Shown here: in pieces, positions 54,095-62,976 of the stretch | Numbering within the stretch: the first letter of the stretch is position 1 | Layout: each line of letters opens with the position of its first letter | From: Escherichia coli | GTDB taxonomy: Bacteria > Pseudomonadota > Gammaproteobacteria > Enterobacterales > Enterobacteriaceae | Assembly: GCF_001677475.2 (NCBI RefSeq) | Contig: NZ_CP015229.1 | Length of the DNA stretch: 64,000 nucleotides | Direction: 5' to 3' (one strand) | Program-made: the position numbers and the translations under genes | The notes under the pieces: generated by a model | What the model was told of the DNA's origin: nothing | The model's database searches: none | What the model saw: only the letters and a program-made list of their open reading frames with translations

Positions 54095-54279
54095 TGTTTA
54101 TATCCTTTTTGCAGCAGGTCCAGACGAGCCAGCATTGAAGGAATGCATACTTCATTTAACAGGTCCTGCTCGAGTTTTCTCTGCTTAATGGCGTCTTCAA
54201 TAAATGTTTTGTCTCCAGTGATAACGCCAATTTCGAAACGAAGTTCAGACGTGCTGGCATTACATGATAACTTTTCCAT
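54091..54279 (-). CDS. dicB: DicB-like cell-division inhibitor
   Basis: 62 aa from the internal start MEKLSCNASTSELRFEIGVITGDKTFIEDAIKQRKLEQDLLNEVCIPSMLARLDLLQKGYKQ. It shares FEIGV, EDAI and SMLARL blocks with K-12 DicB. An SD GAGGA lies upstream. Confidence 0.8.
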   Translation of the reverse strand: MEKLSCNASTSELRFEIGVITGDKTFIEDAIKQRKLEQDLLNEVCIPSMLARLDLLQKGYKQ

Positions 54280-54449
54280 TATCGCGTCCTCAACAATGAA
54301 TTTTGTGATGCGGTGCCTGGTGCCTCCAGGTGACGTTAACCAGTTAACAATTAACGCAGGATACAGAGAATCCACCCATAACACTGTTTTTGGTTTTTAC
54401 TGTTCCGCGTGCGCTGAGCCGCATTCACCGCATCACAAAATTCACTTTT

Positions 54450-54508
54450 AAAAAAGGGCGGCAGAGCAGTCACGGAGTAAAACTGATACCGCCAAATGTC
54501 ACCAGAAT
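54450..54508 (-). ncRNA. dicF: DicF small RNA (ftsZ-targeting)
   Basis: The minus strand reads attctggtgacatttggcggtatcagttttactccgtgactgctctgccgcccTTTTTT. This is nearly identical to the K-12 DicF sequence I recall, including the terminator hairpin. It lies 170 nt upstream of dicB, as in Qin. Confidence 0.88.
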
Positions 54509-54821
54509 ATTGATAACAGAGGGCGTTGTAGCGGGGTTGTCACTTAAGCGTATGGTCAACCTGACAACCCGGTGTCCTCAACGGGGAAAGGCGTCCCTCC
54601 CACCCCCGCCATACTTACCGCCGCGCCATTTCGCGGGTCGCCACAACCGGAAGCGCACGGTCGAATTAAATTTAACGACACCGTGCAGTGAGACGAACTT
54701 CGCCGTGCGCTTTCGTGTTGTGTGCCTGCTTTTAACCACGTCAGGCGAGGTGGTTTCCGTCATTCCCCAACGACAGGAAATCTGTATAATCTGGGTATCC
54801 CCAACGATCCAAGGAAATCAT

Positions 54822-54923
54822 ATGACAGAGCAAAGAGCACAAGCAGGTGATGGTGTATGGACCGGGATGATATTCTTGACAGAATTTTTTATGGCTATTT
54901 TCTTGAGCAACTGTTTTCTGTAG
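54822..54923 (+). CDS. Candidate 33-aa upstream ORF with a hydrophobic C-terminus (speculative)
   Basis: MTEQRAQAGDGVWTGMIFLTEFFMAIFLSNCFL. A strong SD AAGGAA lies 5 nt upstream, and TATAAT (54785-54790) about 32 nt upstream. It overlaps the start of the 148-aa ORF in another frame. Confidence 0.3.
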   Translation: MTEQRAQAGDGVWTGMIFLTEFFMAIFLSNCFL

Positions 54924-55303
54924 CGACTGGTCGTCTCGATAAACTTCTCTCAGTAGTGAGTATTATCCTCGGTTCATCTGTCATTGGCGGATTCATTCCG
55001 GAAATTTCTGGCGTTTTTATTGTTGTGATCGCAACCGTCCAAACGATTTATGGATTCGGACAAAAGTCAGGTAATACCATGAGAAAATCCGCAGAATATT
55101 TGCAGCTTTTTGATGATGCAGAAAAATATTCTGATTCGGAATTGAAAATTCAGTTAAAAACTCTGGAAAAAACAGATGATCATATTTGGTCATCACTTAA
55201 AGATATTGCGATCTTAAAAACACAGATCAAAATAGGCGTCTCCATCGAACAACAAGAGAAGTTGCCCACAAAATCCAAATTGATGCGATTTCTTTGTGGT
55301 TAG
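54857..55303 (+). CDS. 148-aa two-transmembrane-helix protein of unknown function (moron, opposite to the dicBF operon)
   Basis: A long ORF in AT-rich DNA, where stop codons should be frequent. An SD AGGTGA lies upstream. Two adjacent hydrophobic helices (LLSVVSIILGSSVIGGF and ISGVFIVVIATVQTIYGF) are followed by a charged helical tail of about 80 aa. Confidence 0.7.
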   Translation: MDRDDILDRIFYGYFLEQLFSVATGRLDKLLSVVSIILGSSVIGGFIPEISGVFIVVIATVQTIYGFGQKSGNTMRKSAEYLQLFDDAEKYSDSELKIQLKTLEKTDDHIWSSLKDIAILKTQIKIGVSIEQQEKLPTKSKLMRFLCG

Positions 55304-56104: not shown

Positions 56105-56147
56105 ACTATAGGAAATGCCTAATTGCTTGTCAATAGGCTATGCCTAA
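56105..56147 (-). promoter_or_regulatory. PL-like promoter with OL operators
   Basis: On the minus strand: TTGACA (56128-56133), 17-nt spacer, TATAGT (56105-56110). Operator-like 15-mers ataggctatgcctaa (56133-56147) and ataggaaatgcctaa (56108-56122) overlap it. Confidence 0.6.
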
Positions 56148-62576: not shown

Positions 62577-62711
62577 ATTCATTCCGTATGGGAATTCCCA
62601 TATCGGGCAAAAACGGTTTGCTGTAAAGCGAGAGTTAAGTAGAATTGCTGCGGGTGCTTGAGGCTATCTGCCTCGGGCATGCCGCCGTAAGGCAGACAGA
62701 GAAAAGCCCCA

Positions 62712-62772
62712 GTTAACATTACGCGTCCTGCAAGACGCTTAACATTAATCTGAGGCCATATCTATGACTTGC
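62712..62772 (-). ncRNA. sok: Sok-like antisense RNA (approximate ends)
   Basis: A minus-strand promoter, TTGCCT (62802-62807), 17 nt, TAACCT (62779-62784), would start transcription near 62772, antisense to the mok start. A hairpin gcgtc-ttgcag-gacgc lies at 62722-62737. Confidence 0.4.
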
Positions 62773-62976
62773 ACACGTAGGTTAGCCTCTTACGTGCCGA
62801 AAGGCAAGGAGAAGCAGGCTATGAAGCAGCAAAAGGCGATGTTAATCGCCCTGATCGTCATCTGTTTAACCGTTATAGTGACGGCACTGGTAACGAGGAA
62901 AGACCTCTGCGAGGTACGAATCCGAACCGGCCAGACGGAGGTCGCTGTCTTCACAGCTTACGAACCTGAGGAGTAA
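62764..62976 (+). CDS. mok: Mok-like overlapping reading frame (modulator of hok translation)
   Basis: 70-aa ORF in frame with and containing hok, which is the typical hok/mok arrangement. Confidence 0.5.
   Translation: MTCTRRLASYVPKGKEKQAMKQQKAMLIALIVICLTVIVTALVTRKDLCEVRIRTGQTEVAVFTAYEPEE
62821..62976 (+). CDS. hok: Hok/Gef-family type I toxin (HokD/RelF-like)
   Basis: 51 aa, MKQQKAMLIALIVICLTVIVTALVTRKDLCEVRIRTGQTEVAVFTAYEPEE. It matches my recollection of K-12 HokD. Confidence 0.9.
   Translation: MKQQKAMLIALIVICLTVIVTALVTRKDLCEVRIRTGQTEVAVFTAYEPEE

Follow-up and report, generated by a model that had tools for sequence, protein, structure and literature searches.

The locus examined here raises the question of what is encoded by a GC-rich, hairpin-dense stretch of DNA that lies between dicF, the gene for the small RNA (sRNA) DicF, and a gene for a membrane protein in an Escherichia coli prophage. 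Work on DicF, a textbook example of a prophage sRNA, dates back to 1989; DicF represses ftsZ and, in enterohemorrhagic E. coli, activates the virulence regulator PchA. The stretch is part of a 64-kb piece of E. coli chromosome (contig NZ_CP015229.1), the whole of which we refer to as the window; an Rfam scan found the rne leader and SraB in it, and a lambdoid prophage fills it from ~51 kb onward. An initial annotation, made from the sequence alone, had described positions 54520 to 54780 as having ~57% GC, lower-GC flanks, and no credible open reading frame (ORF), and had suggested an attenuator or riboswitch-like fold that could be the 5′ leader of the membrane protein gene, part of the DicF precursor, or an independent structured RNA. 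The composition is as described, with a GC content of 0.579 compared with 0.43 in 54100-54455 and 0.38 in 54806-55303. Two listed ORFs of 177 aa (54390..54923, plus strand) and 61 aa (54578..54763, minus strand) are present, and the frame of neither is conserved. The stretch is a mosaic of three parts, which we named module A, hairpin B, and module C. We conclude with high confidence that module A is a conserved structured RNA domain of the DicF precursor or leader and is encoded on the minus strand.

Fold, strand, and distribution of module A

Module A (minus strand, 54516..54665; covariance-model match of 157 bits, E 4e-49) is a domain of ~135 nt whose consensus comprises six helices, i.e., P1 (8 bp), P1a (5 bp), P2a, P2, P3 (9 bp), and a 6-bp tertiary helix. 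In the comparative fold, helices P1, P1a, P2a/P2, and P3 form a core four-way junction (54525-54647), and the minimum-free-energy fold of the minus strand of the window reproduces this junction. Helix P1 closes the junction and is formed by the 5′ strand GUUGUGGC (54640..54647) and the 3′ strand GCUACAAC (54525..54532), while P1a is the hairpin CCGCG-AAAUGG-CGCGG (54621..54636). The P2 arm is closed by P2a, in which GGU (54617..54619) pairs with ACC (54571-54573), and carries the variable hairpin P2 (CGGGG...CCCCG, 54582..54608), which has a pyrimidine-rich, UCCU-type loop and of which >10 stem sequences are known. P3 (GGGUUGUCA/UGACAACCC, 54534..54570) has a 19-nt loop; CCAUAC in this loop (54550-54555) pairs with GUAUGG in the internal loop of the P2 arm (54609..54614), giving the tertiary helix, a pseudoknot. 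All stems recognized in the initial annotation are present, and its two local stems correspond to P3 (54534-54542/54562-54570, a perfect 9-bp match) and P1a (ccgcg/cgcgg at 54621-54636).

In comparisons with shuffled sequences, the whole stretch scored z = -2.65 for the minus strand, with 1 of 100 shuffles folding as well, and z = -2.58 for the plus strand, with 3 of 200 doing so; module A alone gave z = -1.2 and about -0.4 (-0.36), respectively. Because single-sequence folding beats shuffles only moderately, the claim that the fold is above chance is based on comparison. Among 75 distinct module A sequences, 95.8% of the cells are paired, compared with 32 to 55% for slid partners. Compensatory changes, in which both sides of a pair differ, were found in 13 of the 36 pairs, a level reached in 0/500 shuffles and contrasting with 0 to 4 in the slid controls; since the homologues are related, fewer independent events underlie these changes than the counts of compensatory cells would suggest. 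These data support the structured RNA option of the initial annotation. At least one two-sided pair is present in each helix except P1a, which is 96% paired and is the weakest helix with one-sided changes only. In helix P1, which is 95.3% paired, columns 30:176 of the alignment (A4) occur as C:G, U:A, and U:G, and columns 28:178 as G:U, G:C, and U:A. P2a is 100% paired, and its U:A pair is replaced by C:G in the P1/P7 subtype and by U:G in locus L102. The second pair of P2 occurs as G:C, C:G, U:A, and A:U. Two-sided changes affect 6 of the 9 pairs in P3, and in Izhakiella three consecutive pairs of this helix are rewritten (GGGUAACCA/UGGUUACCC). The pseudoknot is 99.6% paired, one of its pairs varies among U:A, U:G, and C:G, and CCAUGC is a natural variant of its 3′ strand. 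P2a and the pseudoknot are absent from the covariance model of the alignment, yet both covary.

Our first structural model had a 9-bp pseudoknot that included GGU:GCU. This model was replaced by P2a (GGU:ACC) and the 6-bp pseudoknot because it accounts for a two-sided change (U:A to C:G) in columns 54:135, while only one-sided changes were seen for the alternative. Two further candidates were rejected. Pairing of the P2 loop with the GAGGA junction fits some lineages and fails in Erwinia, Izhakiella, and Trabulsiella, and the complementarity suggesting a long-range stem that encloses module A and the terminator in non-Qin types more likely reflects a separate hairpin further downstream, one arm of which has a similar sequence. 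The P2 hairpin of the window has an 8-nt insertion relative to K-12 (at 54590-54600), and one P1-type copy (L017, 4662-4823) has a 27-nt G-rich insertion in the same place; P2 tolerates expansions.

Module A is always in the sense orientation relative to the early operon and follows a promoter in phages P1, P7, and cdtI. A wobble-based strand test gave 136 G:U cells in the sense orientation vs 50 A:C cells, and 95.8% vs 92.6% of cells paired in sense and antisense, respectively. The orientation is settled by context, i.e., the sense orientation relative to the operon together with a same-strand U-tract terminator 3′ of the module in 78 of 79 distinct contexts. In an alignment of the K-12, mEp460, P7, Actinobacillus phage, and Salmonella phage sequences, two near-invariant blocks (GGCGCGGCGGUAAGUAUGGC and CACCGGGUUGUCAGGUUGACCAUACGC) flank a variable hairpin. 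The spacing of these blocks ranges from 44 to 70 nt and falls into all three mod-3 classes, and 27 of the 75 variants have stops in all six frames. Because the spacing breaks the frame and stops are frequent, we conclude that module A is non-coding; the frame-breaking length variation also excludes the degraded coding remnant that the initial annotation had named as its own refuting alternative.

The part of the stretch at 54509-54680 aligns with the ydfC-dicF spacer of the Qin prophage of K-12 at 90.7%, which answers the call in the initial annotation for a comparison with the K-12 region. A megablast query spanning all three parts (54508-54820) matched 4,313 of 5,426 complete E. coli genomes. 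The homologues are rarely annotated: under the match, 30 sampled rows hold one "hypothetical protein" and the adjacent ydfC. Matches in phage records split by query part. Query positions ~18-140 (module A) matched phage cdtI, Stx2c phages, Salmonella phage F1055, a phage recorded for Actinobacillus, and P7, whereas positions ~209-298 (module C) matched SfIV, Kati, Klebsiella phages, and phiES15, all of which are without module A. Scans of viral and genome collections gave ~120 further copies of module A, and the genuine members in these scans are confined to Enterobacterales (Escherichia species, Shigella, Citrobacter, Serratia symbiotica, Trabulsiella, Erwinia tracheiphila, Izhakiella, and P1-type phages). 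Matches in Bellilinea, Pyrinomonadaceae, and Streptomyces share only the search pattern and were rejected as chance matches. Metagenome-assembled contigs labeled Bacillota, Veillonella parvula, and Collinsella (L138, L139, and L143) carry near-identical E. coli-type or P1-type copies and are probably mis-binned Enterobacteriaceae phage DNA. The early region of Actinobacillus phage vB_Apl-pPE4 (L003) is very close to that of an E. coli prophage, which is unexpected for the stated host; at ~2300-2500 in this record, a DicF-like unit consisting of the helix P1 3′ strand, linker, and terminator is tandemly duplicated. The covariance model found exactly one copy of module A per locus in 81/81 loci, and no second copy was found in the rightward operon of the window, of the 81 loci, or of the complete mEp460_ev081 genome. 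A scan with Rfam 15, which the initial annotation had called for, detected no family in 54508-54800 at the gathering score or at E<=10; outside the stretch, it detected DicF (54456-54507) and weak matches to STnc100/BSnc115.

Sequences flanking module A

A hairpin followed by a U tract lies 22 to 117 nt downstream of module A in 78 of the 79 distinct contexts, and a decayed Shigella copy accounts for the remaining one. In most lineages this hairpin is of the DicF type. The linker that separates the terminator from module A is variable (10 to 60 nt). In Qin types, linker and terminator together are DicF. In the window, dicF including its intrinsic terminator (54456..54507, minus strand) is an end-to-end match to Rfam RF00039 with 77 bits, and the GC-rich stretch is wholly upstream of this match; module A and DicF are separated by a single-stranded A/U-rich linker (54508..54524). 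In cdtI and Citrobacter types, a DicF-like hairpin (UUUGGCGGUACCAG...CUGGUACCGCCCUUUUU) is combined with a different seed, and the Rfam DicF model scores these copies below its gathering score; it reports only Qin-type copies and L033. The terminator of P1 and P7 (GCCCAUCUUCGGGUGGGCGUUUUUU) is unrelated to the DicF type and is followed by genes for tRNA-Asn and tRNA-Thr. We note that a simple terminator scanner misses the DicF terminator, which has a loop of >8 nt, and is therefore unsuitable for counting terminators in the operon.

In L018, L141, L151 (cdtI), L003, L063, L122, and L015, the linker, which occupies the position of the DicF seed, differs by lineage while the DicF-like terminator hairpin is retained. 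Judged from these sequences, the DicF-like sRNAs would form a family that shares a 5′ domain and differs in seeds and target specificities. In Salmonella phage F1055, Serratia, Trabulsiella, Erwinia, and Izhakiella (L004, L133, L144, L146, and L147), the loop of the terminator hairpin holds a Shine-Dalgarno sequence and a start codon (AUG, or GUG in F1055; e.g., AGGAG..AUAAUGUUCUACCG), and the resulting tiny ORF runs through the 3′ arm and the U tract. This arrangement hints at a possible coupling of translation and termination.

The promoters that precede module A also differ between lineages. In P1 and P7, module A begins ~10 nt into the transcript of the C1-controlled P1ban promoter. The GenBank record of P1 has a misc_feature, "dicF-like region" (68791-68892), that overlaps the 3′ half of module A and the terminator. 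No counterpart is annotated in the P7 record. In phage cdtI, module A lies ~280 nt downstream of a near-consensus pL, in the place where lambda has nutL-N. The interval between pL and module A in cdtI has no annotated minus-strand gene, and only ORFs of 11 and 13 codons were found in it by eye. In the window, module A is part of a minus-strand early-left operon of the dicBF type, like that of Qin in K-12, which is driven by a pL/PdicB-like promoter (TTGACA-17-TATAGT, 56105..56133). After this promoter come a YdfA-type DUF1391 gene, ydfB-like and ydfC-like genes, dicF, the genes for a DicB homologue (54279-54091, minus strand) and a YdfD homologue, and a large exonuclease gene. None of the upstream operon proteins in the window (YdfA/B/C-like) gave an N-like Pfam or family match. 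P1-type and lambdoid carriers have no protein gene next to module A in common, which argues for partners that are exclusively of host origin.

The K-12 spacer homology, the constant sense orientation, and the same-strand terminator in 78/79 contexts support that module A belongs to the DicF precursor. The 5′ end of DicF requires RNase E, and its 3′ end is generated by termination (53 nt) or by RNase III cleavage of read-through RNA (72 nt) (PMC5069750, PMC9438474). The published RNase E processing point for the 5′ end would fall at the 3′ edge of the linker. A site for RNase III is more plausible elsewhere: downstream of the dicF terminator and before the dicB Shine-Dalgarno sequence, a perfect 21-bp duplex (AGUGAAUUUUGUGAUGCGGUG/CACCGCAUCACAAAAUUCAUU) closes a branched fold (54295..54446, minus strand; z -4.72), and this duplex is a candidate RNase III site for the 72-nt DicF that is more plausible than any site in the stretch. 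Thus, the initial proposal of a minus-strand DicF precursor processed by RNase III/E stands with respect to the precursor, whereas the RNase III site is better placed at 54295-54446. Based on the predicted fold, the duplex might also gate dicB translation. The fold has a weak, sub-threshold similarity to Rfam STnc100.

On its 5′ side, module A of Qin-type copies is preceded by hairpin B, a long imperfect hairpin on the minus strand (54642..54722; arms 54699-54722 and 54642-54665) that was found in 38 distinct Qin-type variants. Its stem 54648-54660/54703-54715 (13 nt at 92%) is extended by 54642-54652/54712-54722, and a shorter alternative pairs 54655-54670 with 54671-54686. Among the 38 variants, changes in hairpin B create wobbles or are disruptive, and none is compensatory. 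The base of the hairpin, CACAAC:GUUGUG, overlaps the 5′ strand of helix P1; hairpin B and helix P1 are therefore mutually exclusive at the overlap. This competition, which is seen in the Qin type only, is better founded than the switch proposed initially, in which 54651-54661 pairs with either 54680-54686 or 54703-54712. That switch is physically possible, and hairpin B contains its 10-bp pairing; its 7-bp alternative, however, is confined to the lineage of the window, and since K-12-type copies have a different apical sequence, it is unsupported as a conserved feature. The upstream sequence differs in P1, cdtI, Salmonella, and other copies, and one Shigella copy joins module C directly to P1a. 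Because other lineages carry different upstream sequences, hairpin B is outside the universal core.

The motif GCGCAC/GUGCGC occurs three times on the minus-strand transcript (54703-54715, 54651-54660, and 54406-54420), and a site downstream of dicF could therefore offer the 3′ arm of hairpin B a second pairing partner in read-through RNA. In non-Qin lambdoid copies (L144, L004, L146, and L147), a boxA-like sequence (UGCUCUUU or UGCUCUCUU) is located immediately 5′ of helix P1, with the exact rrn boxA core in L144. Qin-type copies have GUGCGCUU in this place (54651-54660 in the window), and P1-type copies have nothing similar.

Possible functions of module A

The explanation that we favor overall, and hold to be slightly better than evenly balanced, is that module A is a minus-strand leader domain and a cis-acting terminator checkpoint, most likely with a put-like action. 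Module A would act in cis on its own transcript with host machinery only, and module A and the terminator would together form a checkpoint that polymerases meet before the delayed-early genes. Those that stop there would yield an RNA consisting of module A, linker, and terminator, which RNase E may trim to DicF or a DicF-like sRNA. Polymerases that pass would go on, in lambdoid prophages, to dicB/kil and the recombination genes and, in P1, to the tRNA genes and ban. Most likely, the RNA would act on the elongating polymerase by modifying it or by signaling to it; an attenuator controlled by a ligand or factor is a close second. Module A has an obligatory terminator linkage and a promoter-proximal site in phages without an evident N. 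By analogy with known leader RNAs, module A may well control termination or read-through, a specific claim to which we give slightly less than even weight.

The put RNA suppresses downstream terminators through the zinc-binding domain of the RNA polymerase beta′ subunit. Similar to put of HK022 and HK639, module A is a structured RNA in early operons, upstream of terminators that have to be passed, if it acts in cis as its location suggests. As for put, it is promoter-proximal in P1 and cdtI, where the cdtI region is shown without an annotated N gene, and a dedicated phage protein partner is not in evidence. Its position likewise resembles that of put, i.e., at ~+10 of Pban in P1/P7, ~280 nt after pL in cdtI, and in the window behind ORFs without an N-like match. 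In contrast to put, which has ~70 nt and two stem-loops, module A has ~135 nt, a four-way junction, and a pseudoknot. We only tentatively suggest, by this analogy, that module A is a functional analogue, not a homologue, of the HK022/HK639 put RNA. Membership in the put family was rejected: blastn against HK022 gave only chance 9-11-mers, and the module A model (R1), run with filters off, had no match at the putL-like RNA of HK639 or at the put regions of HK022. The 8-9-mers common to the stretch and put (GCGCGGCGG and ACCAUGCG) occur in opposite order and at chance level. In HK639, a putL-like RNA is annotated in the left operon only, and this phage is therefore a precedent for a single antiterminator RNA confined to the left operon.

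Several observations weigh against these proposals. Mechanistically, every step derives from anatomy and context. Module A has no sequence or model similarity to the put RNAs of HK022 or HK639, and a copy in the rightward operon is lacking, whereas HK022 has putL and putR. The Qin-type element sits after three ORFs and not beside the promoter. Inspection of the lineages did not reveal any alternative pairing of module A with the terminator that is conserved, and a classical riboswitch expression platform is not evident. With regard to the fold and its strand, the homologues are related, as mentioned, and the wobble-based strand test is only moderate.

It is also possible, and in our view about as tentative as the put analogy, that module A is a host-factor-dependent control element of a new class, i.e., a processive antiterminator unrelated to put or a riboswitch for a new signal, that in most E. 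coli prophages and in P1-type phages would set how much DicF-type sRNA is made relative to the cell-division inhibitors and early phage genes encoded downstream. Compared with the lambda nut site, some non-Qin copies have the boxA-like motif, the 15-nt boxB was not recognized, and an N-like protein was not found. Terminated leader RNAs at terminators controlled by antitermination can become Hfq-binding sRNAs, as for StxS, IsrK, and lambda 6S (PMC7547250). Unlike these RNAs, which are associated with late promoters and Q proteins, module A is located in the early-left region and places a large conserved fold before the terminator. With DicF (RF00039), module A shares the transcript, lies immediately 5′ of it, and is part of the "long untranslated region" of the DicF literature; it differs in being a separate domain whose conservation extends further than that of the DicF seed and which is also found in front of terminators of other than DicF type.

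Among the alternatives, the one that survives best, although we consider it unlikely, is a scaffold for processing or stability, in which the compact fold exposes the A/U-rich linker and fixes the RNase E cut or shields the upstream fragment from 3′ exonucleases, leaving transcription unaffected. That the 5′ end of DicF depends on RNase E and lies 17 nt 3′ of helix P1 fits this alternative, as does the variation of linker and seed next to a fixed structure. According to the part of the MicL work that is reported in PMC9438474, stem-loops direct the processing of 3′-derived sRNAs. A roadblock, however, needs neither near-invariant junction and loop nucleotides nor a pseudoknot that covaries across P1-type and lambdoid phages of several genera, and P1 and cdtI have no upstream coding RNA that would need protection.

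A riboswitch or attenuator that senses a metabolite, ion, or protein, with the state of the aptamer setting terminator efficiency and thereby coupling the prophage to host physiology, is less probable still. Like transcription-terminating riboswitches, module A combines a pseudoknotted, aptamer-like domain with a subsequent intrinsic terminator, which is at a riboswitch-like distance in the 78 of 79 contexts. The four-way junction, the tertiary loop-loop helix, and the invariant unpaired nucleotides are aptamer-like, the fold covaries, and hairpin B competes with helix P1 in Qin-type copies. In its anatomy, a sensing attenuator would be as natural a reading as a put-like element. On the other hand, unlike known riboswitches, module A has no identified ligand, Rfam family, or conserved switching helix. 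The Rfam riboswitch families are unmatched, the downstream genes do not hint at a ligand, inspection found no conserved antiterminator pairing, and the P1-type terminator shares no sequence with the DicF type. Pairing of GGCGGUA or the P3 loop with the arms of the DicF terminator was considered as an antiterminator and rejected, since it is not conserved in the terminators of P1-type phages or Salmonella phage F1055. The attenuator or riboswitch-like reading of the initial annotation is thus retained for the aptamer-like domain and the obligatory terminator, but not for its specific pairing, which is not conserved, and no conserved competition between antiterminator and terminator was found by inspection.

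We regard as improbable a stable RNA of ~150-200 nt that acts in trans, for example by sequestering a host protein as a decoy or sponge, or by using the CU-rich P2 loop for anti-Shine-Dalgarno regulation. In P1/P7, promoter, module A, and terminator form a self-contained small RNA gene, and the P2 loop retains a UCCU/CUCC composition despite sequence variation; but the Qin-type element lies within a polycistronic RNA, no other part of module A is as poorly conserved as the P2 loop, and a stable species of this kind is unreported in the DicF literature examined (PMC5069750, PMC9438474).

That the stretch is a degraded coding remnant, or that it works as single-stranded DNA, for instance as a priming signal, is very improbable: long ORFs do cross the stretch in the window, and single-stranded DNA would also tolerate G:T wobble, but the length variation breaks the frame, stops are frequent, and the orientation is fixed relative to promoters and terminators. 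That the stretch is a leader or regulatory region of the plus-strand membrane protein gene is hardly credible, since, although it adjoins the gene and its plus strand folds better than shuffles (z -2.58), K-12, P1, cdtI, and others carry module A and hairpin B without this gene, the promoter of the gene (54783-54790) lies downstream of the stretch, and the plus-strand fold of module A is no better than shuffles (z -0.36).

Module C, neighboring genes, and implications

The third part of the stretch, module C (54716..54805, plus strand), is a portable promoter cassette with an extended -10 sequence (TGTATAAT, 54783-54790) that serves plus-strand morons. In the window, this moron is the gene for the 148-aa membrane protein (54857..55303, plus strand; phrog_6315, function unassigned), here called the 2TM gene, which is inserted with the ydfC-like gene on one side and the dicF leader on the other, both on the opposite strand. 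Module C (~100 bp) also precedes unrelated plus-strand genes in SfIV, Kati, and a Shigella flexneri prophage, and the SfIV gene behind it has no similarity to the 2TM protein. Elsewhere, module C was mapped to 2001-2089 in L152 and L153 and to ~1560-1680 in L137, with the conserved hairpins present. Because the promoter is at 54783-54790, nearly all of the GC-rich stretch is upstream of the 2TM transcription start. We conclude that module C is a portable moron promoter that belongs to the 2TM gene and that the rest of the stretch does not. The initial suggestion of a 5′ leader of this gene is also contradicted by the thousands of genomes that carry module A and hairpin B without it.

A 33-codon ORF (MTEQRAQAGDGVWTGMIFLTEFFMAIFLSNCFL, 54822-54923, plus strand) with a good Shine-Dalgarno sequence (AAGGA) begins 35 nt upstream of the start of the 148-aa ORF, with which it overlaps in a different frame. 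It has no PHROG match and could encode a leader peptide; alternatively, the start region of the 148-aa ORF could be mis-assigned. In the rightward part of the same prophage, Rfam identifies a sok antitoxin RNA of the hok/sok type (62652-62826), and isrK and C4 RNAs were found in the related loci L018, L102, L063, L137, and L122.

The sequence resemblance between P1 and the dicF region is already known to P1 annotators. The "dicF-like region" of the P1 record notes this similarity without giving the full boundaries, a structure, or a function. In the literature searched, neither the whole element nor its fold, distribution, or coupling to terminators was found to be described, while older work on dicF or P1 might mention the similarity in words; a full-text literature search for the core sequence of module A gave no match. 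We rate module A as a new RNA family of a known general kind, i.e., a structured cis-acting leader or sRNA-precursor domain.

For DicF, these findings mean that the RNA directly 5′ of this sRNA is a larger domain than DicF itself, is more widely conserved than the seed, and has a knotted fold. The GUAUGG/CCAUAC pseudoknot and helices P1 and P3 are clear targets for mutations. To our knowledge, no N-like protein is known for Qin-type lambdoid prophages or for the P1 ban operon. If module A does control read-through, it would explain how Qin-type prophages and the P1 ban operon pass the first early terminator and how cells balance the expression of DicF against that of DicB/Kil.

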